Source: an uncultured Salinarchaeum sp.
GTDB taxonomy: Archaea; Halobacteriota; Halobacteria; Halobacteriales; Salinarchaeaceae
Reading direction: 5' to 3'
NCBI GenBank assembly: GCA_964520165.1
Contig: CAZFMU010000007.1
Span: forward strand, 1 to 23,688
Length of the DNA: 23,688 nt
Part shown: positions 7,614 through 23,688 of the stretch, one piece after another
Layout: every line of letters starts with the position of its first letter
How positions within the stretch are numbered: position 1 is the stretch's first letter
Made by a program: the position numbers and the translations under genes
The notes under the pieces: generated by a model
What the model saw: only the letters and a program-made list of their open reading frames with translations
Told to the model about the DNA's origin: nothing
Database searches by the model: none

Positions 7614-8378
7614 CTAGTTACGAAGGTACAGTCGCCGTACTCGCTCGGCCAGTTGACCGATCCGCTTGCTACGTTGTGGATCCAGCTGGTCAGATGCTAT
7701 CGCAGCAGCTTTGAGTTGCTGCTGTTGGGCCTCTAATTCTGACTGAACGTCCTCGTACGCGTCATCATCAACCGGAGTATCTTTGACAAATGAGTGGACC
7801 TCATCAAGTCGTTTACGACAGGCCTCCGCTGAATCTTCGCAGGCTCGCTCAAGATGTTCGGTTAGGGAGACGGCTAAGTAATCCGCAGAGGCATCCTGGA
7901 GCCGATCAACGGACTCGGTTGCGGCGAGATCGGCCAATCCGTCCTGCGCCATCTTGCGTTCTGTCTGTCGAGTCGCATCGTCAATGACGGTGTGGTAAGT
8001 TTCTTCAATCTCCTCGCGAAGCGTGTCAGAGTCTACTCTGGCTGCGTAGGTTTGCAAGCGATCTAAGGCCCGTTCTCGTTCGTCTGAGCGGTTGCCATCT
8101 TGTGCTACATCACAGTGCACGGAGATGGCTGTTGGGACCACCCCGGGAGCTGACTGGCCAACAAGCTTGTCAAGCTGCGATTGAGCAAGTGTGCGCTCCT
8201 CTTCGTAAGTCGCATCCCTAGCTACACGCGCAAGTGTTCGCCCGATCGCTGCACGCTGTTGATCATCAACCTCAGAGTAGAGGTCGCCAAGACGCTCAAG
8301 AGCCTCTTTGCGATCGGAGGAATACGTCGATTCACGAGCCTGACGCCGCAGTTCACTTACTGAGTCATGAAGAGCCAT
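7614..8378 (-). CDS. Hypothetical alpha-helical repeat protein (255 aa; HEAT/PBS-like repeats)
   Basis: The ORF track extends to 8603, but the first 75 residues are non-acidic and hydrophobic. The first ATG that yields a halophile-type protein (MALHDSVSELRRQ...) is at 8376-8378 and was verified. Helical motifs of the form ALERLGDLY / ALDRLQTYA repeat. Confidence 0.6.
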   Translation of the reverse strand: MALHDSVSELRRQARESTYSSDRKEALERLGDLYSEVDDQQRAAIGRTLARVARDATYEEERTLAQSQLDKLVGQSAPGVVPTAISVHCDVAQDGNRSDERERALDRLQTYAARVDSDTLREEIEETYHTVIDDATRQTERKMAQDGLADLAATESVDRLQDASADYLAVSLTEHLERACEDSAEACRKRLDEVHSFVKDTPVDDDAYEDVQSELEAQQQQLKAAAIASDQLDPQRSKRIGQLAERVRRLYLRN

Positions 8379-8439
8379 TGAACAGTCCCCTTGGTTGGAC
8401 GAACCTATATAATAGAACAGACATATTCTTTGTGGTGGC

Positions 8440-8997
8440 CTACGGTGGGGTCGATTCACCACAGTCCGGACATTGATCTGCCGCAGACGGGAGTTCTGCT
8501 CCACAGAATATGCAGTATTGGTTGTCCTCAGAGTCACGATCGGCAGGAGCATTAGATGTTGAACTCCCGCTATAGCTATTATCCGAGGACACAGTAATCT
8601 CATCCTTGTTGTCGGTGACCGTCATATTAGAAGCAACGCTATCGGTAATGGTGGTTTCCTCGGCTTGAGTATTAATATTCGATTTATTGACGACGCTGTC
8701 CTCAATAACCGTGCTGTGATCGTTCACTGTAGTGTGTTCATCAGTTTTCGTAGTGCTGTTGTCTACTCGCGTGATGTCGGTCTGCTTAACCGTCTTGTCC
8801 TGCTGACCGCTAACGATATCTCCGCTGACGTGAGTTACATCATCTGTAGTCGAGTCGAGAATATTGGCGGCAAGTTTATCCACCGTGTCATTATTACTGT
8901 TGGTCTCAACGGGGGCTGATGGGTCCCCCTCAGAACATTTTGGACATTCAGCTCCTGTATATACCTCGTTGTGTTGTTCGCAGTACGGCATAGTCAC
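8440..8997 (-). CDS. Zinc-ribbon protein with a Thr/Ser/Asp-rich low-complexity core
   Basis: N-terminal C-x15-CPKC and C-terminal CIFCG-x10-CPDCG. The middle is extremely T/S/D/N-rich and carries the shared EDSVVNKSNI tail motif. The track start at 8995-8997 is GTG and overlaps the upstream stop as GTGA. An ATG two codons downstream (8989-8991) is an alternative start. Confidence 0.65.
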   Translation of the reverse strand: MTMPYCEQHNEVYTGAECPKCSEGDPSAPVETNSNNDTVDKLAANILDSTTDDVTHVSGDIVSGQQDKTVKQTDITRVDNSTTKTDEHTTVNDHSTVIEDSVVNKSNINTQAEETTITDSVASNMTVTDNKDEITVSSDNSYSGSSTSNAPADRDSEDNQYCIFCGAELPSAADQCPDCGESTPP

Positions 8998-10157
8998 TCG
9001 TTCGTATTGTCGTCAACGTCTGAGCGGTTAATGACACTATCACTTACTTCCGTGCTCTCGTCGTTTACCTCGGTGCTCTGATCAATTTCGGTTATGCTTT
9101 GATCAACCGCGGCAATTTCAGTCGTGTCGACGGTTTTGTCCTGAGACCCGACAACCACGTCACCGTCAATAGTAGTATCACCTCCAAGCTCATCGAGACT
9201 CGTGATACCGGCGTATCTGAACTCTCCAATCGACGGCGGATCCTTACGTGTCGATTCAATGGCATCCTCGAACATGTTCCGGATGGCAGCGTAGTGATCG
9301 TCAGGGAGCTCGTTGACTGTCCGCCAGGCCCGATCAGCCACTTTTCCATCGCCGGCATCGGTGATGTCAACTGAGTACAAGCCCTGCTCCCAGACCGCGT
9401 CAATATCGAAAACCCAGAGCCCCACGGCATCAATATTACTATTTGATTTGATATGTTCGAATAAGTGTGGGGTCAAGAGCCCGACGCAGTCAGCAATTCG
9501 AATAGAACCGGTCATCGATCGAATGGTAGGATTTACGACCGCTACGTTCGCGCCTAGTGTGATATCTCCCGCAGCACTGACTGAAAATGCAAATAGGTCC
9601 GACGCTTCGATGTCCCCCTCCGAGTACACATCGCCGAGAATAACTGTCCGTGCGTTCGTCCGAAATGCGTCGGTTGCGTGCACCGAGCCGTATACGACAG
9701 TTGGACGCTCGACTGTGATATGCGCTCCAATTAAGTCACCATAGATCGCGACTGGCTGAGCTTCCCAGTCGTCAAAGGTTGATGCAGGAGCCACAATATC
9801 TATTTGCCCCTTTGAAATCACAGAGCCAGCAATACGCGCCCCGAGAGTAGACGCTTCATTAGCCGCCGGGTGAGCCGCCCCGCCGTGCTCAATAGCGACA
9901 CGATCACGGCCGAATATGTCACCGCTGACCTGTACACCGTACTTACAGTCAACTTCGGCGGCATAGATACCGATTGCCTCAGGCGGATTATATACCGACC
10001 CCTTTTCGAGAGTCACTTGCCAGTTGAGTTGGCGAAACGCGTTTTCCCGTGGAACGAGTGCCTCCTCGCACGTTTGATCAGCCTTGACAGTTGCAAAATT
10101 CGTGTTGTCTGTTTCGACTTTGTCCGACGTGATTGCTCCCTGAAGTTTGTCAGGCAC
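8994..10157 (-). CDS. Bactofilin-like beta-helix (polymer-forming cytoskeletal) domain protein with a Thr/Asp-rich tail
   Basis: The central ~170 aa consist of tandem short hydrophobic/Gly repeats of the bactofilin (DUF583) type: VQVSGDIFGRDRVAIEHG, ARIAGSVISKGQIDIV, VAIYGDLIGAHITVE, TVILGDVYSEGDIEASD and FSVSAAGDITLGANVAVV. The GTG start at 10155-10157 overlaps the upstream stop by 8 nt, and there is no in-frame ATG for about 210 codons. The C-terminus carries the shared DSVINRSDV motif. Confidence 0.6.
   Translation of the reverse strand: MPDKLQGAITSDKVETDNTNFATVKADQTCEEALVPRENAFRQLNWQVTLEKGSVYNPPEAIGIYAAEVDCKYGVQVSGDIFGRDRVAIEHGGAAHPAANEASTLGARIAGSVISKGQIDIVAPASTFDDWEAQPVAIYGDLIGAHITVERPTVVYGSVHATDAFRTNARTVILGDVYSEGDIEASDLFAFSVSAAGDITLGANVAVVNPTIRSMTGSIRIADCVGLLTPHLFEHIKSNSNIDAVGLWVFDIDAVWEQGLYSVDITDAGDGKVADRAWRTVNELPDDHYAAIRNMFEDAIESTRKDPPSIGEFRYAGITSLDELGGDTTIDGDVVVGSQDKTVDTTEIAAVDQSITEIDQSTEVNDESTEVSDSVINRSDVDDNTNE
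9019..9047. repeat. Second DNA-level copy of the shared tail module (encodes ...SDSVINRSDV...)
   Basis: See 7002..7040. Confidence 0.45.
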
Positions 10158-11148
10158 GTGCGGTCACCTCCGCGGTGTCCTCGGTTGTTGTAGCGTCTGT
10201 TGTCCTCTGTTTGTGATTGCCTTCTGCCTCAATCTCGTACGTTCGTAGTGCCTCAACAAATCGATCCAACGCGATATCTTCCTCTATAAGAAACTGGGGA
10301 TCGACATATGCACTGTCATCGCGGCTAGCAAGCGCATCACGCACCTCATCCTGTGCAACATACGACCGTACTGCATCAGCCATTTTGCTGTAGCCGTGTA
10401 CGGGATGCTCTCGGAGGTAGTCTCGGTATGGTTGGGAACGAGTTGGGGATTCGACATCATCAGAACGCCCTAAAATGGAATAAACGCGGAGTTCTTCGCC
10501 GTCATCTGTCTCAATGCCAACGACCCAAAAGGGAACTGTTATCTGCGCGGTATCACTCATTGTTGGGAGATCCGTCTGGAGTGACGCAATCGTATCTGCG
10601 GTCGCGGAGCGGTCATCAAGGAACTGATCAATCTGTTCGAAGTAGTTATTCCGCGCAGAGAGAATAGCATCAATACGATCACGATAGGTCTCATTTGTCG
10701 TGTTAGCAAGATTTGACGACTGACTGGCGACTGTTGAACGAGCCTCACGGATGTGATCAAACTCATCGTTAACTGTCTTGAAGGTATCACCGTGGCCGCC
10801 GATCGAATTCAAAAACCGATTTTTTAGACGCTTGATACTCCCGCGGTAGTCATCAAGCACCTCTTTGACGCGGTCTTCGTACTCCTGTCGCTTGCGTTCA
10901 ACCTCTTCTCTAAGTTGATCTTTGAGATCTTCGATTGCCTGACGTTCGGCCGTTGCTTTCTTGTGCTCAACATCACGAATTTGATGTTTGAGTTGTTTGA
11001 CCTCGTCGCTAAGCTGATCAACAGCACTGTTTGTCTCTCGGATTTCGCGTTTGAGATCATCAATCTGATCCGCAACAGCATCGCCTGCGGCCCGTCCGAT
11101 GCGGTGTTCGTCTACGTTTACTGTGACGTCCTGCTTGTCAGACATCAT
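10150..11148 (-). CDS. Hypothetical coiled-coil protein (332 aa)
   Basis: ATG verified at 11146-11148 (MMSDKQ). It overlaps the upstream gene's stop as ATGA. The N-terminal ~100 aa is heptad-like and E/R/K/Q-rich. The C-terminal half is mixed alpha/beta. Confidence 0.7.
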   Translation of the reverse strand: MMSDKQDVTVNVDEHRIGRAAGDAVADQIDDLKREIRETNSAVDQLSDEVKQLKHQIRDVEHKKATAERQAIEDLKDQLREEVERKRQEYEDRVKEVLDDYRGSIKRLKNRFLNSIGGHGDTFKTVNDEFDHIREARSTVASQSSNLANTTNETYRDRIDAILSARNNYFEQIDQFLDDRSATADTIASLQTDLPTMSDTAQITVPFWVVGIETDDGEELRVYSILGRSDDVESPTRSQPYRDYLREHPVHGYSKMADAVRSYVAQDEVRDALASRDDSAYVDPQFLIEEDIALDRFVEALRTYEIEAEGNHKQRTTDATTTEDTAEVTARA

Positions 11149-12692
11149 AGATCACCCAGCTGCTGCTCAATCTTGCGAGCCGTATCATAATCTGACTTGA
11201 TTTCGAAGTAGCGTTGCTCAGCGTCATCTTTGATTTGCTCGTATTGCGTGAGATCGATCATCTTCTGTTCTTTTGTCTGCCGAATCTCCTCGGCCTCCTG
11301 CTCAAGATCTTCAACGCTGTCCATGATCGGATCACGGAATGCATAGTAGAGGCTCCGCCATACCTCGCCGAAAAGTGCGCCACTATCAGCAACCGCAACG
11401 GGATCAACTGATCCGTGGACATCGCAGTAGCCTTGCTGGCCAAGGTCGTCAAGTCGGTTGTACGCACGCCTAAGTTCATCGTCAAGTTCAGGGATAGCTG
11501 CGGCAATGTCATCACGGATCTGGCCGGTGAAGTCCGACTCAGCACCACGATTGAGATCGGAGTCGCTGAGGGCCATGCCGAGACTCCCACTTTCAGCGCT
11601 TAGGATCTCGTCGACAAGATTGAGCTCGTCACGGATCGTCTCGATCCGATCTTCAAGACACTGTGGACAGACCTGCTTTTTCCCTGCAGTAGTGATCTGG
11701 TTGGCGTGATCGTCGTAGTGCGCCTCAACACGCTGTTGATTCGTCCGAAGGCGGGTCACTAGCTCCGTCGTAATCTCTTCCACACGGTCGCGACTCGCCT
11801 GCGCCTGCTCAAGCATATCGCCGCTCACCGCCTGTTCCTCAACGCCACGAATATCATCTACGGTCTCCTCACACTCGTTAAGCTGCTGACGAACCGATAC
11901 CTCTGGAATATCACGAGAAGGAGCCAAGAGCGAGTTACGCGATAGTTGTCTTATACTTTGTGCCACTTGGTTGTTTGCATGAACTGCTGCAGTAATCGTA
12001 TCACGTTCAATATTGCCTGCAACAGCGGCCATCGAATCAATCTGGTTGATGATCGGCTGCTCAAGACGGCGGTGGTCAGTAGCGTCCGGCGCGAACTGGG
12101 TAGCAACCGACGGATCAATGATAGATTCCTTACCGAAGGCCTCGTCATACTGTTGTTTGTAGGCAACAACTTCTTGTTGATTATCAAACAACAGTTCAGA
12201 GTCAATATATGCAAGTTCAAGATTTGTTTTAGGGGCAGTGTTCAGCCCATCGAAGATCATGTGCTGATCCTGGTAAGGGATCAAATAGAGAGGAACCCCT
12301 ATTTGTGAAACGAACGAAACGGTTCCATCTGGCTCGTTCGTCTCAAGCTTCGATCGCTGGGTGAGGATTAGCTCTTTCGCATCTTGATACTTACTAAATG
12401 CGTAGATACCGACACCAAGCGCAGCGACGAGACCTATACTGGCAAGGATCAATGCTTCCCCGGCCAAACCAATAATGATAAGCAGTATACCACCGGCCAC
12501 CCCACCGCCGCCGAGTTGTTGCATGCGCCGCTGTCGGGATTCAGCCTCAGTAATTGTATCCTCATACCGTTTCTGTCGGTCGAAGTAGCTGCCTGCAGCG
12601 TCGGCAAACGCCATGGCAAGTACTTCTGTTCGAGCGCGTTCATGCGGTATCCGTTCCCCAGCGTCTACCATTCCCGGAGCTTGATATGACAT
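11145..12692 (-). CDS. Membrane protein with an N-terminal 2-TM hairpin and a long helical cytoplasmic region (515 aa)
   Basis: The ORF track extends to 12779, but the first ATG giving a halophile-type N-terminus (MSYQAPGMVDAG...) is at 12690-12692 and was verified. Hydrophobic segments: GVAGGILLIIIGLAGEALILASIGLVAALGVGIYAF. It heads a run of four tightly coupled genes with overlapping start/stop codons (12692 to 8440). Confidence 0.7.
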   Translation of the reverse strand: MSYQAPGMVDAGERIPHERARTEVLAMAFADAAGSYFDRQKRYEDTITEAESRQRRMQQLGGGGVAGGILLIIIGLAGEALILASIGLVAALGVGIYAFSKYQDAKELILTQRSKLETNEPDGTVSFVSQIGVPLYLIPYQDQHMIFDGLNTAPKTNLELAYIDSELLFDNQQEVVAYKQQYDEAFGKESIIDPSVATQFAPDATDHRRLEQPIINQIDSMAAVAGNIERDTITAAVHANNQVAQSIRQLSRNSLLAPSRDIPEVSVRQQLNECEETVDDIRGVEEQAVSGDMLEQAQASRDRVEEITTELVTRLRTNQQRVEAHYDDHANQITTAGKKQVCPQCLEDRIETIRDELNLVDEILSAESGSLGMALSDSDLNRGAESDFTGQIRDDIAAAIPELDDELRRAYNRLDDLGQQGYCDVHGSVDPVAVADSGALFGEVWRSLYYAFRDPIMDSVEDLEQEAEEIRQTKEQKMIDLTQYEQIKDDAEQRYFEIKSDYDTARKIEQQLGDL

Positions 12693-12787
12693 TACACAGG
12701 GGAGTAATATCATACAACTCAAATAAATGCTTGGGCGCTGCTGCACCCGCCGCAAGTGCTTTATCACTAACAAAACCATTTCTCATC

Positions 12788-13004: not shown

Positions 13005-14837
13005 TTACTCAAGCTGAGTGCCACACTCAATGCAGTACGTCGTACCAGGATCGTTTTGACTCCCACAGTCCGGACAGGTAATCGCTTCTTCGGCCGAGGA
13101 GCCTCTCTCAGAAGATTCGGCTTCACTCTCCGATGGTCCACCGCTCTGCACAATAGTCGTATCGCCACCAGAGGACGCTCCCGAATCGCCACTAACGATG
13201 ACATTATCGGAGGTATCCTCAGCAGCGGCAGCTGCCGCCTCACCCATGTTGTCCATCGCGGATTCGGTAGTCTCCTGCATCCGGTCCATTGAGTCGTCCA
13301 TCATCTCGTTCATCTCTTCGCGGAACTGCTTTTGATCCTTGACGCGCTGGCGTTCCTTTTCGGCACTATTAGCCTCCTGTCGCGCCTTCGCGAGTTCGTC
13401 GCTGTTCTGTGCCCCTAGCGAGTCGAGTTGATCCGCATTGAGGTGTTCGGCCTTGTCCATCTTCGCAAGTTCTGTCAGCGCGTCGGTATCCGTGTCGTCG
13501 AGACTCGCGAGCGTTTGTGCGTCCACGTTGTCGCGGGCACTAAGTCGCTTCTTTTCGACAGCGATATCATGCGACTCCTTTTCCATCTCAAGTTCTTGAT
13601 TGCGAGCCTTCTTGTCGAGTTTTTGCTCGTCTTTTTTCTGCTTGATGTCGAGCAGATCCTCTATTTCGGACACGTCCTGCTGGTGCTCGTCGGACCGCTC
13701 CTTCATCGACTGCTCGTGTTTGATATCGCGTCGATTGACGGCCGACTCCGTCCGATGGGTCTTCAGCTGTTCGTCGTGTTCGACGGTTTCCTGCTCGGCG
13801 TTGTGTGCGTGTCGCCGCTGCTGGTCCTCAAGATCCTGTTCGTGATCAAGTGCCTGGGACTTGATTTCGTGGTCGGCCGCCTGTTCGACCGTCTCGCGAC
13901 GCACCCGCTGTTCGTGTGTGTGTACCGTATCGTCGGTCTCGCGTTCGCGCTCGCGACGGTCAAGTGCCGCCGTCTGGTCAGCCAGTTCTTCTCTCTCCTC
14001 CCGGATATCGAGTTCCTTGTTGCGTTCGCGGAGTTCATCGCGGTCGTCCGCGTAGTCGAACGACAACAGTTCAATGAGTGACAGGCCATTTCGCTGGAAT
14101 GCGTCCTGGCACACTGTCTCGAGTTCGTCGCGAATTCGCTGTCGGACAGCCTGGTTACCATAGAGTTCATCGTGGGAATACTCGTGCAGCGCCGACTCAA
14201 CAGCATTGCGCATGGCCCGTCCGAGATCTTGGTTGAGGGCTCCGGTCGTCAGGGCGTCGCGATCTGCCATCATCGACTCGAAGAACCGTTCGAAGTCGTC
14301 GATCGACACGACGACTTCGAGTGTTGCCGATACAGGATAATCGTTTTGCGTACGAATATCCTCGAAAGTTCGCCGAACCGTCTTCTGTCCTTCGTCAACA
14401 AGGATAATGGTGAGATCGGGGGATCGGCGGAGTTCAACGATACGCTGGGGAAGGCTATCAAGTGTGTGCTGGCCAGGGCCGAGCGTTTCGGTGAGTTCGC
14501 CGTTCTCAAGCAGTAAGGCCCGGGTGCCCTGCTGGATCCGGATACTCTCGGTCCGCGTGAGTTTGCCGAGGAGGCTACCGGCACCGAGTACCTGCTCGTC
14601 AACACGTTTCGCAAACTCATCATCAGCCAGTCGCCAGCCGCCGCTTGTAGGAGCCTTCCCACTACTTTCATGTTCGGCACCTGCGGCAAGTTCCTGGCCA
14701 CAGTTACGACAGAACTGCGCCTCTACGGGGTTTGACTCGCCACAACTCGGGCAAGTGCGTACAAGCGGCTCTCCACATTCCTTGCAGAACTCGGCCTGTG
14801 CTGATACATCGGCGTTGCAGTTTGGACAGTGAGGCAT
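13005..14837 (-). CDS. Flotillin-like protein: N-terminal double zinc ribbon, SPFH/band-7-like domain, long E/R/Q-rich coiled coil, and C-terminal zinc ribbon
   Basis: ATG verified at 14835-14837. The N-terminus has CPNC..CKEC..CPSC..CRNC and the C-terminus CPDCG..CIECG. Residues ~95-250 follow the band-7 pattern: SIRIQQGTRALLLENGELTETLGPGQHTL, then LTIILVDEGQKTV, then TFEDIRTQNDYPVSATLEVVVSIDDFERFF, then a helical segment. About 250 aa of charged coiled coil follow, resembling the flotillin EA-repeat domain. Confidence 0.8.
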   Translation of the reverse strand: MPHCPNCNADVSAQAEFCKECGEPLVRTCPSCGESNPVEAQFCRNCGQELAAGAEHESSGKAPTSGGWRLADDEFAKRVDEQVLGAGSLLGKLTRTESIRIQQGTRALLLENGELTETLGPGQHTLDSLPQRIVELRRSPDLTIILVDEGQKTVRRTFEDIRTQNDYPVSATLEVVVSIDDFERFFESMMADRDALTTGALNQDLGRAMRNAVESALHEYSHDELYGNQAVRQRIRDELETVCQDAFQRNGLSLIELLSFDYADDRDELRERNKELDIREEREELADQTAALDRRERERETDDTVHTHEQRVRRETVEQAADHEIKSQALDHEQDLEDQQRRHAHNAEQETVEHDEQLKTHRTESAVNRRDIKHEQSMKERSDEHQQDVSEIEDLLDIKQKKDEQKLDKKARNQELEMEKESHDIAVEKKRLSARDNVDAQTLASLDDTDTDALTELAKMDKAEHLNADQLDSLGAQNSDELAKARQEANSAEKERQRVKDQKQFREEMNEMMDDSMDRMQETTESAMDNMGEAAAAAAEDTSDNVIVSGDSGASSGGDTTIVQSGGPSESEAESSERGSSAEEAITCPDCGSQNDPGTTYCIECGTQLE

Positions 14838-15145: not shown

Positions 15146-17353
15146 GTGACCAGGTGGTCGCGTCGGGCAATACTCGGCGGCATTATCGGTGGGACCGGCG
15201 GAGCGATGGGGCTGACCGAACGAGCCCGGGCCCAGTCCGGCCGTCGCAAGTGGCCCTCATTTGCGTGTGACACGCAGAACACGGGGGCAACCCCTGCACG
15301 GCCGCCAGAAACCTCGCCAGCAATAGAGTGGACAGCTGAGGTGAACGGTGCCGTGCTGTCGACAGCGGCGATAGCCGACGAACGGGTGATTGTTGGCGAC
15401 GAAACAGGTGTCCTTCACGCCCTTAACGCGTTGTCGGGAGAGCGGCTGTGGACGTTTGACACCGCAGATCGCATTAGGTCGACACCCACGGTTCGAAACG
15501 GAACAGTTGTCGTTGGGAGCGATGACGGAACGCTCTATGGACTCTCGACGACCGGCGAGCACTACTGGGAGTTCGAAACAGAGGGTCCGATTGTTGCGTC
15601 ACCGGCCCTCGTAGACGGCACTGTTTATGCCGGCAGCTACGATGGAACAGTATATGCTATTGACGTGACCAACGGTGATCCAGTGTGGATGACGGAGACG
15701 GGGGGGCTGATTGCATCGTCCGCAGCGGTGGCCGACGATACAGTGTATCTCGGCAGTAGCGACCAGCAGATGTATGCGCTCGACGCAGCGACGGGAGAGT
15801 CCGTGTGGCAAACCGAGGTGGAGGCTGAGATCGCCGCGTCGCCAGCAGTCAGCGGCGGAACCGTATTTATCAATACCGGGAGCGGGGAAACATATGCATT
15901 CGATGCTCGTTCCGGAAACCAACGGTGGTCCTTCGAGATGGACGGGATGGCCGGCACCTCGCCCGCAGTAATGGACGGGACAGTGTACCTGAGTGAAGGG
16001 CTAACCGGCACACGGGTTCATGCGGTGAGCGTGACGACAGGAACGCATAGGTGGACGGTTAATACCGAAGCGGCGGTTCAGGGCTCGCCGGCGGTCGGAG
16101 GCAAAACTATGTACATTGGTACCGGTGATGGACAGCTGTATGCCATTGGCACGTCCAATGGACAGGTGCGATGGACGATCAATCTTGATGGCCCCATTCA
16201 AGCCGGTCCAGCACTCGTTAATGGTGGGGTCATCGTTGGGACGACGGATGCAACCGTGTACGCCCTGGGAAACGAACAGTTCATGAGTGTCCCGGGCGGC
16301 CCGGGGCTCCCGGGAGGCGTCGGTGCACTGATAACCGCGGGACTCGGTGTCGGCGGCGGGACTTGGTGGTGGTGGCGTCAACGGGGTCGCTCATCTTCCA
16401 CCGACACTTCCAAGCAGTCCCAATCCGATTCTGCGGGGTCGTCAACCACAAGCGGTTCTGAGGCGGCTGCCGATATTACGCCGACCGAGATTCCCGACGA
16501 AATGACAGATCACCCGAAGATTCCTGAGACCGTGCCAGCACCAGCGAAGCGCTCGCTTGAGTATCGCTCGTTCCAGACGAAGACGCAGATCGGGAGTGGT
16601 GGCAATGCTGATGTCTATCGTACGACAACAGCTGACGGAGCCGAACTTGCAGTCAAAGAACCACATGTTACGGGAACGATCCACACAGAGACCGTCGAAC
16701 AGCTCCTCGAAGAGGCCGAGACGTGGGGTCAACTTGATGACCACGACCACATCGTGAAGATAGTCGACTACGGTAGCGATCCAGTACCCTGGATCGCCAT
16801 GGAGTATATGGACGGAGGGACGCTTACGCAACGAGCAGGCAATATGGGCGACCGGCAGGCACTCTGGACAGCAATCGCCGTCACAAAAGCGGTACGACAC
16901 GCCCACCGTCGTGGGGTTGCGCATCTTGATCTCAAGCCAGCGAACATCCTCTTTCGATCAGTCAAGGACAGATGGGACGTTCCCAAGGTCGCCGACTGGG
17001 GCCTTTCGAAGCACCTCTTAGAGCACTCACATAGCATCGAGGGACTCTCGCCACAGTACGCCGCCCCAGAGCAGTTTGATCAGGATCGAGGAGTCGCCGA
17101 TAACGTGACCGATATCTACCAGTTGGGAGCCGTTCTGTACGAACTATTCACTGGGCGACCACCGTTCGAGGGGCGACCGACCGAGATCATGCAGTCAGTA
17201 CTTGCCACCGAACCGCAACCACCGAGTTCTCTCGTAGAAGGGGATCTTCCACCGGCACTCGATGATATCCTTATGAAGGCCCTGGCGACCAGTAAAGGAG
17301 ATCGGTACGACGATATTGTCTACCTCAGAGACGATCTGCGGGATCTGTATTAG
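15146..17353 (+). CDS. Receptor-like Hanks-type Ser/Thr protein kinase: Tat signal, 8-blade PQQ-like beta-propeller ectodomain, single TM, cytoplasmic kinase domain (catalytically intact)
   Basis: GTG start. The N-terminus MTRWSRRAILGG is a twin-arginine motif. Eight repeats of the form V(Y/V)xGSxDGxxYAxDxxxGxxxW are present. A TM helix (GALITAGLGVGGGTWWWW) is followed by an S/T-rich juxtamembrane linker. Kinase motifs: Gly loop GSGGNADVY, the conserved Lys in ELAVKEP, helix-C Glu (EEAETW), catalytic loop HLDLKPANIL, DWG in place of DFG, and APE (YAAPEQ). Confidence 0.9.
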   Translation: MTRWSRRAILGGIIGGTGGAMGLTERARAQSGRRKWPSFACDTQNTGATPARPPETSPAIEWTAEVNGAVLSTAAIADERVIVGDETGVLHALNALSGERLWTFDTADRIRSTPTVRNGTVVVGSDDGTLYGLSTTGEHYWEFETEGPIVASPALVDGTVYAGSYDGTVYAIDVTNGDPVWMTETGGLIASSAAVADDTVYLGSSDQQMYALDAATGESVWQTEVEAEIAASPAVSGGTVFINTGSGETYAFDARSGNQRWSFEMDGMAGTSPAVMDGTVYLSEGLTGTRVHAVSVTTGTHRWTVNTEAAVQGSPAVGGKTMYIGTGDGQLYAIGTSNGQVRWTINLDGPIQAGPALVNGGVIVGTTDATVYALGNEQFMSVPGGPGLPGGVGALITAGLGVGGGTWWWWRQRGRSSSTDTSKQSQSDSAGSSTTSGSEAAADITPTEIPDEMTDHPKIPETVPAPAKRSLEYRSFQTKTQIGSGGNADVYRTTTADGAELAVKEPHVTGTIHTETVEQLLEEAETWGQLDDHDHIVKIVDYGSDPVPWIAMEYMDGGTLTQRAGNMGDRQALWTAIAVTKAVRHAHRRGVAHLDLKPANILFRSVKDRWDVPKVADWGLSKHLLEHSHSIEGLSPQYAAPEQFDQDRGVADNVTDIYQLGAVLYELFTGRPPFEGRPTEIMQSVLATEPQPPSSLVEGDLPPALDDILMKALATSKGDRYDDIVYLRDDLRDLY

Positions 17354-17418
17354 CCATGAGCGGGATGGTGCTGTACTCGGATCGCCCGCTGAACTATCGG
17401 CCGCGGTGGTGGAGATAA

Positions 17419-19614
17419 ATGCAGCTTGATCGCAGTCGTTCACTATCGCGACGAGGGGTCCTCAAAACAGCAGGGGTAGGGGTCACCGCTGCTGCTGTTT
17501 CCACATCGAGTACAGCGGAGTCGCAGTCGTCCTGGTCAACATTCGGTTACGATCCTCAAAATACTGGATATTCCAAGGAGGCAACCGAAGTACACAACCC
17601 CAAGGTGGCGTGGCGATTCGAAACACAACAGAGTGTCAATTCGTCACCGGCCGTGTACGAGGACACGGTTTATACTGGTAGTGGTGATGGACGGGTCTAC
17701 GCAATCGATGCTACGACCGGAGCGAAACGGTGGGACTATCGAACAGCCGGCGGCGTCAGTTCGTCACCGACCATCACCGCTGATACCGTTTATGTCGGGA
17801 GTTCAGACGCCACGGTCTATGCACTCAGTCGGACAGACGGGAGTGAACGCTGGCGGTATCGTACTGGAGCCGGAGTCTTCTCATCACCGACAGTAGTGGA
17901 CGATACCTTGGTTGTTGGGAGTCTTGATGGCGCCGTGTACGCGCTTGATACGGCAAACGGTGAAGTCCGTTGGACCCACGAGACCAACGGTGAGGTGTGG
18001 GCAACACCCGCCGTCGCCGACGGGGTTGTATTCGTCGGCAGCCGGGACCGACAACTATACGCCCTCGCGGTTGACTCGGGGACCAAACAGTGGGACCGAA
18101 CGACCGGGGGTCCGATCGATTCACCGCCGGCGATACGCGGTGATACCGTCTATGTCGGAAGCCTCGATGGCAGCGTATACGCCTTCACTCTTGATGGTCG
18201 GCAACGGTGGACGGCCGAAACAGACGGCAAGTTCGCGTCATCCCCAGCGGTAACAACCGACTCAGTGTACATCGGAAATCGCAACGGCAAGGTGTACGCA
18301 TTCACTGCGGGCGATGGCACCCGGCGGTGGACAGTCGAAACCGGCGGGCGGGTTTTCTCGTCCCCAGCAGTCACCACGGGACGTGTCTATGTGGGAAGCG
18401 GCGATGGAAGGATCTACGCGATTAACGCGACCACCGGGCGCACCAGATGGGATGTCGCAACCGGGGACGGGATCTTTTCCTCTCCGGCCATCGCCGATGC
18501 AACACTGTACATCGGGAGCACCGACGGAAACCTCTACGCAATTGCCGATGCAGCGACTCCATCATCACTCCCTGGCCCTCTCACGCAGCAGGAGTTAGCG
18601 CTCGCGCTCTTGGGTGGAGCCAGCATTGGCGTAGGAGGACTCTGGTGGTTCCGGCGCCGCAGAGGGGGGACCTCCGATGGCCCGGACGCTTCCTCGCCAT
18701 CGAACGGAACGCCACGAGCGACCGCCGCGAATCTGCCGGATCTAGACCCAGCGCCGGCTATCGAGGCAGCGACCTACAATCGGTTCACCGACCGCGAACG
18801 AACGGGGACGCAGGCCGGTATGCACGTCTACCGGGCGACGATCCGAGCGGATGGAGAGTACCGGACCGCGATTCTCCGAGAACCAGCGGTAACCGATACG
18901 CTTGAACTCCGGTCTGTCGGCGCGTTCAGCGAGCGTGTCGAGACGTGGGCGAAACTCGATGATCACAACCACATCGTCTCGGTATACGGTTACGGGCAAG
19001 ATCCCATCCCCTGGGTCGCCCATGAAGCCGTCGACGGGCCGTCACTCAACGCCGTCGTCGGGACAGTTGGCATCCCGCAGGCCGTGTGGATTGCCCTCGG
19101 CGTGACAAAGGCCGTCCGTCACGCACACCAGCGAGGAGTCTACCACGGAGCCTTGCAGCCGGCAGTATGTCAGCTTCGACAAACAGAAGACGCGTGGCCT
19201 GTTCCAAAGATTGCTGGGTGGGAACGCGATCAAAATCCATTCGACAACCGAGCAATCGCCGACCGTCCAATACTGCCGTATGCCGCCCCAGAGCAGCTCC
19301 GGGGGAGCAGATCACCCGACGACGTGACCGATGTGTACCAGCTCGGAGCCGTCTTATACGAACTCTTTACCGGACAACCACCTTTTGAAGGATCCTCACA
19401 AGAAATTAAAGAGGCAATCAAACATGAGTCTCCGACATCGCCGGACGAGGTTGCCGAGTCGGTGCCACCGGCGATCGCGGACCCCCTCCAGACCTGTCTC
19501 GCAAAACGACCAGCCGATCGGTATGACTCAACCGTGTACCTCCGCGATACCCTCAGTGATCTGCTCAAAAACTATCTCGATGTAGGAGACAATACTGTCG
19601 TGCTGGAAAACTAA
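17419..19614 (+). CDS. Receptor-like pseudokinase: Tat signal, 8-blade PQQ-like beta-propeller, single TM, degenerate kinase-like domain
   Basis: ATG verified at 17419. Tat motif SRRGVLK. Same architecture as 15146..17353. The kinase domain has lost the Gly loop (GTQAGMHVY), the conserved Lys (AILREP), the catalytic Asp/Lys/Asn (HGALQPAVCQL in place of HLDLKPANILF) and the Mg-binding Asp (AGWE in place of ADWG). The overall fold markers are kept: DDHNHIV, DPIPWVA, APEQ and DVYQLGAVLYELFTGQPPFEG. Confidence 0.9.
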   Translation: MQLDRSRSLSRRGVLKTAGVGVTAAAVSTSSTAESQSSWSTFGYDPQNTGYSKEATEVHNPKVAWRFETQQSVNSSPAVYEDTVYTGSGDGRVYAIDATTGAKRWDYRTAGGVSSSPTITADTVYVGSSDATVYALSRTDGSERWRYRTGAGVFSSPTVVDDTLVVGSLDGAVYALDTANGEVRWTHETNGEVWATPAVADGVVFVGSRDRQLYALAVDSGTKQWDRTTGGPIDSPPAIRGDTVYVGSLDGSVYAFTLDGRQRWTAETDGKFASSPAVTTDSVYIGNRNGKVYAFTAGDGTRRWTVETGGRVFSSPAVTTGRVYVGSGDGRIYAINATTGRTRWDVATGDGIFSSPAIADATLYIGSTDGNLYAIADAATPSSLPGPLTQQELALALLGGASIGVGGLWWFRRRRGGTSDGPDASSPSNGTPRATAANLPDLDPAPAIEAATYNRFTDRERTGTQAGMHVYRATIRADGEYRTAILREPAVTDTLELRSVGAFSERVETWAKLDDHNHIVSVYGYGQDPIPWVAHEAVDGPSLNAVVGTVGIPQAVWIALGVTKAVRHAHQRGVYHGALQPAVCQLRQTEDAWPVPKIAGWERDQNPFDNRAIADRPILPYAAPEQLRGSRSPDDVTDVYQLGAVLYELFTGQPPFEGSSQEIKEAIKHESPTSPDEVAESVPPAIADPLQTCLAKRPADRYDSTVYLRDTLSDLLKNYLDVGDNTVVLEN

Positions 19615-19644
19615 TTTATAGATCGGTTGAACAGTAGACGTTGT

Positions 19645-20229
19645 ATGGGGACCGGTCAATCATGGGGAGCAGACGGTGCGATATTCGCCGTTGCGACGAT
19701 TATTCTTGTTGGGACATCGGTACTCGCGATGCCCGCACTCGCACAGCAGGATGCAGCGGATGTTGCTGGCGATCTCTCATGTGTCGACGAGAGCCACACG
19801 GAAATGGCAGATCGAATCAGTTCACTCGCAGATCGTGGGACCGAGGAGTTGCCGGCCTCGCTCCAGAGTCGAATCGCTGGCGAGCGCATTGAGATCACGA
19901 TCGGAGACTCGACAAAGTTCACCGCACGCGTTGATCCCAGAGCGAACGTTCAAGAGGTGAGTACTGGCAGTCCAACCAACCCAACACTACTGATTTCGAC
20001 CGATTGTGAAACCATCGACCGAATCGCCCAATCGGCGACACCACAACGCGAACTTGAGGGAAGTGTCAGTAACGGTGCAATCGACATCCACAGCCCGAGT
20101 CCACAGCGCGATGCTGCGGTCTCGTATGGAAGTAAAGCCGTCCAGACGTACCACATCGCAAGCGAGGGAGACACTGGGACGGCCGGTGACGCTGCCGATG
20201 GGTTCAGAAATGGTCTCGTGATGTACTAA
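19645..20229 (+). CDS. Secreted or membrane-anchored hypothetical protein (signal-peptide-like N-terminus; about 195 aa)
   Basis: The track start at 19627 is TTG. The first ATG at 19645 gives MGTGQSWGADGAIFAVATIILVGTSVLAMPALAQQ, which has a hydrophobic core and an AxA-like site. Acidic mature part with 2 Cys. It is GC-rich like the flanking kinase genes, and the next gene starts 2 nt after its stop. Confidence 0.6.
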   Translation: MGTGQSWGADGAIFAVATIILVGTSVLAMPALAQQDAADVAGDLSCVDESHTEMADRISSLADRGTEELPASLQSRIAGERIEITIGDSTKFTARVDPRANVQEVSTGSPTNPTLLISTDCETIDRIAQSATPQRELEGSVSNGAIDIHSPSPQRDAAVSYGSKAVQTYHIASEGDTGTAGDAADGFRNGLVMY

Positions 20230-20958: not shown

Positions 20959-22476
20959 ATGGCGACAGAGGATGCTGGGGACAGGCGCATTCCATCGATT
21001 GCAGATTCAGTTCCAAATCGGATTGAGGCAGCGTTCGACGATTTTACCGAGGTTGATAAGCTTGGGTCTGGCGGGAATGCAGATGTAACAAAAGTTGAGT
21101 TCGATGGCCGGGGGCCCGACACGGTGGCGATCAAACAGCCACGAATGCAGGGCACACTTGATCAGGAGTCGATCAAACAGTTCGTCGATGAAGCAGAGAC
21201 TTGGAACAAGATTGATGATCACAACCACATTGTCGGCGTCCTTGACTGGAATTCTGAACCGCTGCCGTGGATCGCGCTTGAGTATATGGACGGCGGCGAC
21301 CTGAACACCCGAATCGGCGATCTCTCGATTGCCGAAGCTCTCTGGATCGGAGTGGGGACGGCCAAGGCCGTACGACACGCACACCGACGGGGTGTGGCAC
21401 ATCTCGATCTCAAGCCAGAGAATATTCTCTTTCAGACAACCGAGGCGGACACCTGGGACATCCCCAAGGTGACTGACTGGGGGCTCGCCAAGATGCTCTT
21501 AGATCACTCGAAAAGTGTTGAGGGACTCTCACCGGAATATGCGGCTCCGGAACAGTTTGATGCCGATAGTTACGGAGCCCCAGACGACATGACTGATATT
21601 TACGCGATCGGAGCAGTTGTCTACGCGTCACTGACCGGCAACCCACCGTTTGTTGGGGCCTCCTCGGCGGTCATGCAGGGTGTGCTCACCGAAGCTCCTG
21701 ACCCTCCAAGTGAGACCGTTGATGACCTGCCCGACGGTACCGATGCAGTTATCCTGAAGGCGCTTGCCAAGAACAAGGACGCACGGTACGAGTCGGTGCT
21801 TGACCTCCGTCGGGATCTTGAGACATTGCTTGAACGTGAGTTGGGGACCGCAGATGACGAGGCTGAACTTATCGCTGAGGCAGGCCGATCCGCGAATATC
21901 ACCGACACGACGATCGCGGAGTCTGCCCCAGCCGGTGCCAAGACCGAAACTGAGCATCCGTCAATCACCCTCAGTGACCGTACATACGAGTTTGTGCCGC
22001 CAGGGAGTGCACCGAACGACGCCCTTCGGAATCTTTCGTATCTGAGCCTCGGCATCGGAAGCGCGACAATTATTATTGCGCTATTCAATATCCCGGGCCT
22101 GGTTGGAATCAGCGCGATAGGACCACTGTTAGGAGGAGCGTTCCTGATTCATGGGGCGTCCCAGGCACGAGCGACGGTTCGATCATATTGGGGTGGAATG
22201 AGCCTCTACGGCCTTGCTTTTTTAATTTCGCTCTCGGTTGGTAGTGTACTCGTCATCAGTCTCGTCCTTCTCGGGATATACTGGGCCACACAGGGTGGCG
22301 AGTCGATTGATCACCCGGGATGGGTACCGGACGGACTGCAGACAGTTGCCAATGGAGAACTTGAACTTCCAAGCCCAATTAGCAAGGTGATCAATACGTA
22401 TCGGCGTGATACGACAGACACTACCGATACAGCTGAGCAGTCTGGACCCAGCGAAGGTGAGACACACACGGACTAA
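20959..22476 (+). CDS. Hanks-type Ser/Thr protein kinase (catalytically intact) with a C-terminal multi-TM membrane anchor
   Basis: ATG verified. Motifs: GSGGNADV, VAIKQP, EAETW, HLDLKPENILF, DWG and APEQ, so all catalytic residues are present. An acidic linker is followed by hydrophobic segments (LSYLSLGIGSATIIIALFNIPGLVGISAIGPLLGGAFLIHGA and MSLYGLAFLISLSVGSVLVISLVLLGIYWA) and an acidic T/D-rich tail. Confidence 0.9.
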   Translation: MATEDAGDRRIPSIADSVPNRIEAAFDDFTEVDKLGSGGNADVTKVEFDGRGPDTVAIKQPRMQGTLDQESIKQFVDEAETWNKIDDHNHIVGVLDWNSEPLPWIALEYMDGGDLNTRIGDLSIAEALWIGVGTAKAVRHAHRRGVAHLDLKPENILFQTTEADTWDIPKVTDWGLAKMLLDHSKSVEGLSPEYAAPEQFDADSYGAPDDMTDIYAIGAVVYASLTGNPPFVGASSAVMQGVLTEAPDPPSETVDDLPDGTDAVILKALAKNKDARYESVLDLRRDLETLLERELGTADDEAELIAEAGRSANITDTTIAESAPAGAKTETEHPSITLSDRTYEFVPPGSAPNDALRNLSYLSLGIGSATIIIALFNIPGLVGISAIGPLLGGAFLIHGASQARATVRSYWGGMSLYGLAFLISLSVGSVLVISLVLLGIYWATQGGESIDHPGWVPDGLQTVANGELELPSPISKVINTYRRDTTDTTDTAEQSGPSEGETHTD

Positions 22477-22665: not shown

Positions 22666-23688
22666 TTACAGATGTTCATTAAGCGCATCTCGGAAATGAA
22701 TAACTGTATCAAACCTTTCTGATGGGTTACTATCCAGCGCCTTTTGAATGACTTCCTCAATACCCGCATCGGAATTCACAGACGGAGTTGAATGTGAGTG
22801 ACTTGGGGGTGATCCGGTTAAAGCCTCATATGTAGTCGCTCCCAGACGGTAAATGTCTGCTTGTTCTATCTTTGGGCTCTCAGTCGCCGTGGGTAACTGG
22901 TACGGGTCACGACGTGGAACAAGTTGATCCAATATCCCACGGAGCGTTACGCGCATGTCGTCATCAACTAGAATGGATTCGGGTGTGAGTGCCTCATATA
23001 CTCCGCCGTACCGCTGAACGTGATGAACAGCGTCGCAAGATTTGATTATCGTTTTGATTACCTGCGTCTCGGTGAACTCATCAACGCGGTCTGACAGCGA
23101 AGCGGAAGTAGCTGGCTCTACGGCTGCCCAAGGTAAGGGTTCTCTACCATGTGCATGGACAGTCAAAAGATCGGGATGGGCGTCCATCTCAGCCCACAGC
23201 CTAATGTGCTCTGAAATCTGATCTATTTGGTCATTTGTGAGTGTCTCCGTCTTTTTTCTTGAGGGCTGAATTACCCAGACAGTCGTATTCTCGGCTGATG
23301 CACTTAGGATCTCAATACCGTCGGTGCTAATAATGCTATCCTCTATATTGATATCATCATATCCGTTGATATCAAGTGTTGGAGATATTCTGGAATTTAC
23401 TGCTGTTTCTTTCCGGGGGTTTCTAGGATTACTCCTAGACCCATTCGCATTATTATCACTATCCGATGATGTCGCGAGCTGATATCCTAAATAGCCCGCA
23501 CCGATGGTTGCCAAACTTCCTCCCGCGAGCACCACTGGATTCGTTGTCAAATTTTTCGCTTGACTGAAAAACAACATAGGGGCGCCTGTACTATTACCAG
23601 GTTCTCTCTGGGTGGTATCTGATTGTTGAGTTCTGGATGTAGTTCCATCAGATCCATCGGGGTGAGACTCAGACGAATCTCCTGTGGT
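22666..23688 (-). CDS. Degenerate kinase-like (pseudokinase) membrane protein in lower-GC sequence; the ORF is open to the window edge and probably partial
   Basis: Recognisable kinase-fold remnants aligned to the neighbouring kinases: RLWAEMDAHPDLLTV, EPLPWAAVEPA and ADIYRLGATTYEALTGSPP. The conserved Lys, the catalytic loop (YEALTPESIL) and DFG (RGI) are all lost. A TM helix (VVLAGGSLATIGAGYLGYQLA) precedes the domain. The first ATG is at 23575-23577, but the reading frame continues without a stop for 37 more S/T/D-rich codons to position 23688. Confidence 0.65.
   Translation of the reverse strand, partial: TTGDSSESHPDGSDGTTSRTQQSDTTQREPGNSTGAPMLFFSQAKNLTTNPVVLAGGSLATIGAGYLGYQLATSSDSDNNANGSRSNPRNPRKETAVNSRISPTLDINGYDDINIEDSIISTDGIEILSASAENTTVWVIQPSRKKTETLTNDQIDQISEHIRLWAEMDAHPDLLTVHAHGREPLPWAAVEPATSASLSDRVDEFTETQVIKTIIKSCDAVHHVQRYGGVYEALTPESILVDDDMRVTLRGILDQLVPRRDPYQLPTATESPKIEQADIYRLGATTYEALTGSPPSHSHSTPSVNSDAGIEEVIQKALDSNPSERFDTVIHFRDALNEHL

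Follow-up and report, generated by a model that had tools for sequence, protein, structure and literature searches.

We analysed a 23,688-nucleotide stretch of DNA from an uncultured Salinarchaeum sp. (GenBank assembly GCA_964520165.1, contig CAZFMU010000007.1, positions 1 to 23,688, forward strand), here called the window, and found in it a tandem pair of genes, A and B, whose products are predicted from their sequences to be paralogous single-pass receptors with a propeller outside the cell and a cytoplasmic kinase domain of the Hanks type. A carries the residues needed for catalysis, whereas B has lost them. Co-encoded paralogues of which exactly one is catalytically competent, which we took as the mark of a heteromeric kinase/pseudokinase receptor, were found in 10 of 10 tandem pairs of this family. 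Our preferred reading, to which we assign a probability of roughly 0.6, is that the two proteins make up a heteromeric receptor Ser/Thr kinase in which one subunit is catalytic and the other scaffolding or allosteric.

Pairwise alignment placed A and B colinearly along their full length at 38% identity. A preliminary description of this DNA had proposed two adjacent co-directional genes 65 nt apart that share a twin-arginine translocation (Tat) signal, a PQQ-type propeller, a transmembrane (TM) helix and a kinase domain; we recovered both ORFs (open reading frames) with exactly the boundaries it gave, and the shared architecture was borne out in A and B alike. The Pfam model Pkinase (PF00069) matched A at 120.3 bits and B at 49.4 bits, both above the cutoff of 31.7, and the profile search of the ectodomains that the description had suggested returned PQQ_2 (PF13360, 178-189 bits) and Beta-prop_ACSF4 in both, with PF13570 in A as well. 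The proposed Tat signals correspond to RR motifs that are present in both proteins and conserved in the family, with the Tat model TIGR01409 passed by B alone (18.0 against a cutoff of 16.7; no match in A), and from these motifs we infer that export of A and B probably depends on Tat. All four subgroups of the family keep the RR motif and also the Gly-rich TM helix with an Arg cluster behind it. The TM helices (16316..16375 in A and 18595..18651 in B) are unusually rich in Gly, with a glycine-zipper-like family motif GLGGGGxW(W) followed by RRRR, a pattern that could serve as a site of helix-helix packing between the subunits within the membrane. Between the TM helix and the kinase domain lies a disordered, Ser/Thr/Pro-rich juxtamembrane linker. 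A and B are probably co-transcribed; a scan for bacterial-type promoters and terminators, which performed at chance and is unsuited to archaeal promoters, returned no terminator-like site in the gap between them.

The kinase domains of the two proteins differ at the positions on which catalysis depends. In A the G-loop reads G483-S-G-G-N-A488, the third Gly being replaced by Ala, and alignment to B and to PknB-type structures placed the beta3 Lys at K504 and the alphaC Glu at E523. These are followed by a catalytic loop H593-L-D595-L-K597-P-A-N600, by D617-W-G at the DFG site and by A640-P-E642 at the APE site. The claim that A keeps every catalytic residue is therefore upheld by the alignments, with the G-loop Ala as a qualification, and A is predicted to be the catalytic subunit. 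Since it carries HLD instead of HRD, A is a non-RD kinase; active kinases of this kind are typical of plant pattern-recognition receptors. In B, the G-loop reads GTQAGM, the beta3 Lys is R487, the catalytic loop is H576-G-A578-L-Q580-P-A-V583 (D to A, K to Q and N to V), and G600-W-E stands at the DWG site, which agrees with the losses described earlier (Lys, the catalytic Asp/Lys/Asn and the Mg-binding Asp). To these we add the alphaC Glu, which is replaced by R506 and had been missed. APE (623-625), TDVYQLGAVLYELFTG in alphaF and the Arg of DRY are nevertheless retained in B. With the fold kept and the VAIK Lys, HRD Asp and DFG Asp replaced, in addition to R506 and V583, B has the attributes of a pseudokinase: of the residues Lys, Glu, Asp, Asn and Asp, A has all and B has none. 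Because replacements have removed the ATP-anchoring Lys and its alphaC Glu partner as well as the catalytic Asp and the two residues that bind Mg, B is predicted to be canonically non-catalytic, that is, it cannot carry out phosphotransfer by the canonical mechanism.

We considered whether B might still be an enzyme, either through a non-canonical mechanism with relocated residues, as in WNK and CASK, or through another nucleotide-dependent reaction. Some predicted dead kinases keep activity or nucleotide binding, and this general experience, the intact fold model of B and the constraint seen in related pairs (both below) would all be compatible with such a role. However, all five key residues are replaced, both metal ligands included, and the G-loop GTQAGMHV of B comes without a compensating Lys. 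The preliminary description had allowed that a Lys or Asp at a shifted position might have been overlooked, but a HMMER alignment of B to PknB revealed no relocated Asp or Lys. The substitutions moreover vary by subgroup (the catalytic Asp is replaced by A, G, H or N, and the DFG site reads DWW, SWG or GWE), and no alternative catalytic constellation is conserved. We regard a catalytic B as improbable, and a catalytic A beside a non-catalytic B remains our preferred reading of the pair.

An AlphaFold2 model of B, built from a 40-sequence family alignment, reached a mean predicted local distance difference test (pLDDT) score of 83.8. The propeller (approximately residues 45-378) comprises eight four-stranded blades at pLDDT 95-98 and the bilobal kinase fold (approximately residues 450-720) lies mostly at 85-97; disorder in the model is limited to the signal peptide, the stretch of TM helix and linker, and the activation loop. 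B accordingly models as an intact kinase fold with its C-lobe core. The eight blades ascribed earlier to each ectodomain are seen in the model of B and, for A, follow from the colinear 38%-identical alignment together with the repeat motif. Foldseek matched the B ectodomain to the designed eight-bladed propeller Cake8 (target-normalised TM-score 0.95), to BamB (0.78-0.85) and to YxaL (about 0.83, both normalised likewise), and the ectodomain fold is thus like that of the eight-bladed PQQ-like propellers of these last two proteins. By sequence, the BamB model TIGR03300 scored 194-207 bits, under its cutoff of 285, and the quinoprotein dehydrogenase models fell far below theirs (TIGR03075, 87.6 and 97 against 480; TIGR03074, 42 and 47 against 833). 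The shortfall of the dehydrogenase models indicates that 'PQQ' here denotes a BamB-like scaffold propeller with no cofactor site. Neither an outer membrane nor a BAM complex exists in Archaea, and in A and B the propeller would be the sensor part of a kinase.

Database searches with A and B returned a large kinase family centred on Halobacteria, whose active members share the signature GxGGNADV / A[IVL]K / HLDLKPxN / DWG / YAAPEQ / TD[IV]YQLG. In a survey set of 85 proteins in which a family kinase lies C-terminal to at least 350 residues, the four residues K/D/N/D are kept in 69 and at least one is missing in 16 (two of these 16 are only partly aligned), B and P0051 being the most degenerate with 0 of 4. 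By looking up gene contexts and scanning reference genomes we gathered ten tandem pairs in Halobacteria. All ten are co-directional, with a gene for a type I propeller upstream and one for a type II propeller downstream, and in all ten exactly one member has the full K/D/N/D set. The dead member is type II in five (the window; L008, from Haloglomus irregulare; L072; L075; L069) and type I in the other five (L007, from Halobellus salinisoli; L068; L067; L071; L074). In each of the five pairs with a degenerate type I member the two genes run into each other, with a stop/start overlap of 1-4 nt, the arrangement one would expect if the subunits were co-translated. The two propeller types were separated in a neighbour-joining (NJ) tree of 48 sequences with bootstrap values of 82% for type I and 50% for type II, and profiles built from active members only assigned types by margins of 63-211 bits; B was type II by 113 bits and A, in a leave-one-out test, type I by 91 bits. 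One active family member, P0033, has a propeller of neither type and is a singleton. That either member may be dead argues for the pair, and not a particular gene, as the unit under selection, and the recurrence of live/dead pairing suggests that the two proteins act as one signalling unit.

We next consider selection on the degenerate domains, for which we estimated the ratio of nonsynonymous to synonymous substitution rates (dN/dS) by domain between orthologous pairs. The degenerate kinase domains gave 0.196 (P0025/P0027) and 0.193 (L008_2/P0022), compared with 0.124 (P0004/P0005) and 0.068 (L008_1/P0123) for the active kinase domains of their respective partners, and the propellers were alike in both members at 0.17-0.29; more divergent pairs were saturated (proportion of synonymous differences, pS, about 0.8). 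At a dN/dS of approximately 0.19-0.20 the degenerate kinase domains are therefore constrained, yet 1.6-2.8 times less tightly than the active ones. Positions that never vary, whether a copy is active or degenerate, include the His of HRD, the Asp of alphaF and the APE Glu together with the Arg that partners it. For B itself, the evidence consists of the intact 731-codon ORF, a GC content at third codon positions (GC3) close to that of A (0.609 against 0.615), the fold model and the retained invariant core. Six assemblies of the A/B locus (L001-L006) show 0-1 differences per gene in A and B, too few to inform selection. These data bear on the idea that B is a decaying, functionless duplicate, for which the loss of all catalytic residues would speak. 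Against it stand an ORF still intact at only 38% identity to A, the matching GC3, a confident fold model with an invariant structural core, the dN/dS of about 0.19 in orthologous degenerate domains and the recurrence in ten pairs, and we consider decay effectively refuted. The earlier proposal that B is a selected pseudokinase is in this respect supported by the ten pairs, the dN/dS of approximately 0.2 and the intact fold model.

The history of catalytic loss was approached through profile scores and discrete characters. Scored against active-only profiles, each degenerate kinase is 13-52 bits closer to the active partner type of its own lineage. A Ser before DWG and a DRYDS after the alphaH-alphaI Arg are common to the active IIa kinases, to the degenerate IIb kinases and B, and to Ib, and these two characters set IIa, IIb, B and Ib apart from Ia and the outgroups. 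Most parsimoniously, catalysis was lost within the type II lineage in the group formed by the window and Haloglomus, while in the Halobellus group the type I genes probably took up a type-II-like kinase domain by gene conversion from their neighbour and then lost catalysis. There is thin evidence, on this account, for at least two independent catalytic losses.

Coordinates of the pair and of the other features discussed here are collected in Table 1.

Table 1. Features of the window and of assembly L002 of the same locus (positions in the window unless stated otherwise; aa, amino acids).
Feature	Position	Strand	Details
Gene A, receptor-like Ser/Thr kinase, type I propeller, predicted active	15146..17353	+	735-aa ORF; Pfam
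A twin-arginine signal (predicted)	15146..15238	+	SRRAIL, aa 5-10; ARA/QS, aa 27-31
A ectodomain, 8-bladed BamB/PQQ_2-type propeller, aa 36-377	15251..16276	+	PF13360, PF13570; colinear with B model
A Gly-rich TM helix (predicted), GVGALITAGLGVGGGTWWWW, then RQRGR	16316..16390	+	aa 391-410
A Hanks kinase domain, aa 476-735	16571..17350	+	K504, E523, D595, K597, N600, D617, APE 640-642
A-B intergenic gap, 65 nt	17354..17418	+	GGTGGAG about 6 nt ahead of the B ATG
Gene B, receptor-like pseudokinase (predicted), type II propeller	17419..19614	+	731-aa ORF; Pfam; AlphaFold2
B twin-arginine signal (predicted)	17419..17529	+	SRRGVLK, aa 10-16; TIGR01409
B ectodomain, 8-bladed propeller, aa 39-378	17533..18552	+	AlphaFold2 model; Foldseek
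B TM helix (predicted), LALALLGGASIGVGGLWWF, then RRRRG	18595..18666	+	aa 393-411
B pseudokinase domain, aa ~450-720	18766..19578	+	R487, R506, A578, Q580, V583, G600; APE/alphaF/DRY retained
Accessory gene 1, ~194-200 aa, N-terminal signal/anchor, ~160-aa external domain	19627..20229	+	Homologs; topology scan
Accessory gene 2, polytopic membrane protein of 190 aa	20231..20803	+	TM scan; homologs
Third kinase, 505 aa, N-terminal family kinase, C-terminal membrane anchor	20959..22476	+	Pkinase, 116 bits
PQQ receptor-like protein of 737 aa, C-terminal part, strongly eroded pseudokinase	22666..23688	-	YEALTPES at the HxDLKPxN site; gene runs off the window
Eroded receptors in assembly L002	15248-17461, 17743-19884, 20336->		Positions in L002
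659-aa coiled-coil module protein	1081..3060	-	Orthologs
195-aa module protein	3057..3644		
216-aa helical-hairpin protein, basic N-half, acidic C-half	4132..4782	+	ESCRT-III-like candidate
Single-domain classic AAA ATPase, 385 aa	4786..5943	+	PF00004, 128 bits; Vps4/CdvC-like candidate
PP2C Ser/Thr phosphatase, 238 aa	6019..6735	-	PF00481, 58.8 bits
Zinc-ribbon (C-terminal) protein, 233 aa	6827..7528	-	PF13240, 39 bits; orthologs found
610-aa protein, double zinc ribbon, SPFH/Band7, acidic coiled coil, C-terminal zinc ribbon	13005..14837	-	Divergent from A

A, B and the two genes that follow them form a conserved four-gene cassette. Homologs of accessory gene 1, for which neither Pfam nor NCBIfam yielded a family, flank the pairs in L007, L008, L067, L068, L069 and L071 at 32-46% identity, and homologs of accessory gene 2 occur in L007, L008, L067, L068 and L069 at 37-47%; among the loci examined, both genes were found only beside PQQ-kinase pairs. 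A TTTATA directly after the B stop codon, about 25 nt ahead of ATG 19645 of an accessory gene of ~194 aa (19615..19648), resembles the TATA box of a leaderless haloarchaeal transcript, so that a separate promoter may drive the accessory genes. We also observed a gene for a membrane protein of ~190-270 aa directly upstream of the pair in the five loci with a degenerate type I member; in the five with a degenerate type II member it lies downstream of the pair, past the ~200-aa gene.

Downstream of the cassette stands a third family kinase with the motifs GSGGNADV / AIK / HLDLKPEN / DWG, predicted to be active, whose topology is opposite to that of A and B, the kinase domain being N-terminal and two or more TM helices (aa 369-437) lying towards the C-terminus. 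Beyond it the same genome encodes another three PQQ receptor-like proteins (737, 713 and ~760 aa). All three carry an RR signal, a propeller, a TM helix and a kinase-like domain, complete yet strongly eroded, that no Pfam model matched; these domains have YEALTPES or YTALSPAG instead of HxDLKPxN and are devoid of the beta3 Lys and the G-loop. In a library of 1.84 billion proteins we found 45 representatives of this eroded class at E<=1e-30, with the signature Y[ED]xL[ST]x[ED]S at the HxDLKPxN site and the catalytic residues kept in none of the 44 inspected. The locus as a whole therefore holds one active and four degenerate PQQ receptors in addition to the third kinase. The eroded gene within the window (22666..23577, minus strand) has a GC3 of 0.43, where A, B and most neighbours have values of 0.55-0.63, and overall GC drops to about 0.485 at 22-23 kb as well as at positions 1-1000; these low values may reflect a different origin or expression class.

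This inventory bears on whether B might act alone, as a ligand decoy or sink or as an independent scaffold that recruits other kinases, for example the 505-aa kinase. With three more degenerate receptors and a separate active membrane kinase at hand, B would need no 1:1 match to A, and the type I and type II propellers, at 38% identity, differ enough that they may bind different ligands. We nonetheless consider an independent B unlikely, given the strict adjacency, the fixed I-II order and the single active member in 10 of 10 pairs, together with the stop/start overlap in five of them; that either member can be the dead one likewise argues for the pair as the selected unit. The heteromeric receptor is thus the reading we carry forward into the wider gene neighbourhood.

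The cassette adjoins, in the window and in Halobellus-type loci, a module of AAA, hairpin, PP2C and zinc-ribbon genes, to which in the window the genes for the 659-aa, 195-aa and SPFH proteins and for the 505-aa kinase also belong. An AlphaFold2 model of the 216-aa protein shows a helical hairpin with basic/acidic polarity, although the protein had no sequence match in Pfam, NCBIfam or PDB, and its gene ends 3 nt upstream of the 385-aa AAA gene. This hairpin plus AAA arrangement resembles the ESCRT-III (endosomal sorting complex required for transport) plus Vps4/CdvC arrangement of published haloarchaeal loci. Against NCBIfam models the AAA protein scored 169 bits for CdvC (cutoff 650; residues 11-366) and 189 for PAN (cutoff 500), and its best sequence matches in PDB were Cdc48/p97 D2 domains. 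Orthologs of the AAA protein are 53-67% identical in more than ten haloarchaeal loci, and those of the 659-aa protein are 45-57% identical (L007, L013, L019, L033, L039, L042, L046-L050, L067, L068). PP2C orthologs stand beside the pairs in L007, L068 and L074. The 610-aa SPFH protein, which has an acidic coiled-coil region of ~300 aa (D+E 23%), has an ortholog at 48.6% identity in the module of Halorhabdus amylolytica (L033). The module recurs beside family kinases in Halonotius, Haloquadratum, Halorhabdus, Haloglomus and Halovenus, with a distant syntenic counterpart in Thermococci (L057). In Halonotius (L046-L050) we observed that orthologs of the third kinase, not PQQ pairs, accompany the AAA/hairpin module. 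The 216-aa protein is 70-77% identical in many metagenomes and 67-75% in Halonotius, compared with ~45-50% for the best matches of the receptor kinases outside their own population; this gap points to much faster evolution of the sensor genes than of the core module.

A survey of archaeal ESCRT systems places Ser/Thr kinase and phosphatase genes in Vps4/ESCRT-III loci, those of haloarchaea included (Makarova et al. 2024, PMC11188069). The window is like the 'Main' and 'Halo_FHA' loci described there in having membrane-associated Ser/Thr kinases and a phosphatase, here A, the 505-aa kinase and PP2C, and it further shares an AAA gene of ~385 aa directly after a hairpin protein of ~216 aa, zinc-ribbon proteins and SPFH; the distant Thermococci version of the module would fit the taxon range given for the 'Main' clade (PMC11188069). 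An FHA domain, the signature of Halo_FHA (arCOG13166), had no Pfam match at E<=0.01 in the window ORFs scanned, although a divergent one may be present. PQQ-propeller receptor kinases, tandem pairs and pseudokinases at ESCRT loci are not described in the main text of that survey (PMC11188069).

The same kinase and AAA domains could also point to an anti-phage kinase system of the PD-T4-6, MADS or BREX-PglW-like kind in which B would be a degenerate phage sensor. PADLOC matched kinase domains to PD-T4-6 (159 bits) and mad6 (140 bits) and the AAA protein to IetA (147 bits), and NCBIfam returned MADS6 (98.8 bits) and PglW (53.7 bits). These matches, however, cover the generic kinase or AAA domain only, the NCBIfam scores fall far short of the model cutoffs (98.8 against 460 for MADS6; 53.7 against 990 for PglW), and the window holds no methyltransferase, protease (IetS) or other partner. 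The module is also conserved, with its synteny kept in many genera, in contrast to a variable defence island, and the named anti-phage kinases act inside the cell, whereas the ectodomains of A and B are predicted to be exported. We judge a defence role highly improbable and return to that of a heteromeric receptor.

In the mechanism that we propose, A and B would assemble into a hetero-oligomeric receptor whose type I and type II propellers would bind an external ligand or partner, perhaps with the two accessory proteins, and whose Gly-rich TM helices and kinase and pseudokinase domains would associate. The pseudokinase domain of B might then serve as allosteric activator, scaffold and/or phospho-acceptor for A, and A would phosphorylate Ser/Thr residues of cytoplasmic targets. 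The likeliest output would be the adjacent, ESCRT-like AAA/hairpin/zinc-ribbon module, and the neighbouring PP2C would reverse the phosphorylation, probably as the reset enzyme. The physical association of A and B, the allosteric or scaffolding role of B, the ligand and the substrates are what we infer in this scheme. A broader proposal holds that Halobacteria have an obligate two-subunit receptor kinase, made of Tat-exported type I and type II propeller receptors of which only one need be catalytic, with either subunit inactivated according to lineage. It would link a cue from the outside or the envelope to the control, by phosphorylation, of an ESCRT-like (Vps4/ESCRT-III/SPFH) module for membrane remodelling, with PP2C as its reset and the eroded class, part of a broader and so far unrecognised set of archaeal receptor pseudokinases, as extra co-receptors; we put it forward tentatively, as it would more readily fail than hold in all of its parts.

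Several observations weigh against these proposals. The ten pairs form two sequence-related groups of five, and they therefore represent few independent events, probably 2-4. B has no ortholog above 45% identity, and it is for this reason that selection on B is deduced from related pairs, its intact ORF and its fold model. The kinase-domain NJ tree groups the degenerate copies together at 58% bootstrap; this grouping is likely a product of long-branch attraction, and we set the tree aside as unreliable owing to its long branches and replaced it with the profile scoring and discrete characters given above, which leave one loss and several not fully separated. With four degenerate receptors to one active, a strict 1:1 heterodimer may be too simple. 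On the side of the module, the AAA protein was not told apart as CdvC, PAN or Cdc48 by its NCBIfam and PDB matches, the AAA and hairpin proteins are candidates for Vps4 and ESCRT-III, and in Haloglomus the cassette (L008) and the module (L039) lie on different contigs, so that their coupling is frequent and not obligatory.

Propellers are joined to Hanks kinases in bacteria as well, as in PknD of M. tuberculosis (NHL), AfsK of Streptomyces (PQQ) and RqkA of Deinococcus (PQQ). The kinase domain of A was best matched by 4eqm (E 2e-28) and then by PknB, and the AfsK model matched the PQQ part of A and B, while every score stayed below its equivalog cutoff (scores for A and B: AfsK, 176 and 201 against 1300; PknB_PASTA, 167 and 94 against 450; PknD, 46 and 34 against 839). 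The bacterial propeller kinases have the reverse arrangement: in A and B an N-terminal, exported propeller precedes a C-terminal kinase, a type I topology as in eukaryotic receptor kinases. To our knowledge, no obligatory pseudokinase partner has been described for PknD, AfsK or RqkA. Animal receptor pairs (EGFR or HER2 with HER3) and plant receptor-like kinases with co-receptor or pseudokinase partners, of which the preliminary description had invoked HER2/HER3 and the plant co-receptor pairs, are analogous to A and B in their single-pass topology, paralogous ectodomains and selected dead partner, but they differ in that A and B have PknB-like kinase domains, a BamB-like propeller and predicted Tat export, and that the dead paralog varies by lineage. 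Among prokaryotic pseudokinases, the actinobacterial ActPs1 proteins carry a PQQ_2 domain (PMC12599244). In these an N-terminal pseudokinase precedes a C-terminal PQQ domain, and the G-helix is absent from many members (PMC12599244). B, by contrast, comes from an archaeon, has its propeller ahead of the pseudokinase, retains the core from alphaF to alphaI and stands in tandem with an active paralog.

Three elements of this account are already known, namely propeller-linked Hanks kinases in bacteria, PQQ-linked pseudokinases (PMC12599244) and kinase genes near archaeal ESCRT loci. In a literature search of incomplete coverage we found no description of haloarchaeal pseudokinase receptors and no account of a type I topology with an RR signal, of a I/II tandem with one live member, of inactivation of either member, of the four-gene cassette or of the eroded class. 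The earlier statement that such receptors are not an established archaeal signalling paradigm holds insofar as we found no haloarchaeal pseudokinase receptor described; the architecture itself, though, is widespread in haloarchaeal genomes, where it is generically annotated. Ser/Thr signalling in Archaea is poorly understood and the sensing of the outside by Hanks kinases is almost uncharted. The conserved pairing of a live with a dead receptor would be a prokaryotic counterpart of a kinase/pseudokinase receptor logic known mainly from animals and plants, one that would have arisen independently from a PknB-like kinase and a BamB-like ectodomain. Pairs in which either subunit may be dead would offer a natural experiment on why one catalytic site suffices, and the link to the module would offer a concrete route of input into the phosphorylation-linked ESCRT systems that comparative genomics has proposed for Archaea. 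The analysis also exposes a strongly eroded family of receptor pseudokinases that standard domain models miss. Pairs are carried by the cultured species Halobellus salinisoli and Haloglomus irregulare, which makes them experimentally tractable.

Elsewhere in the window, between the zinc-ribbon and SPFH genes, runs a series of five co-directional ORFs of 254, 185, 387, 332 and 544 aa (7614..12779, minus strand). Pfam gave no family for them past weak zinc-ribbon and coiled-coil matches, and of the five only the 332-aa protein has a counterpart in another module, a weak one at 29.7% identity in that of Halorhabdus amylolytica.

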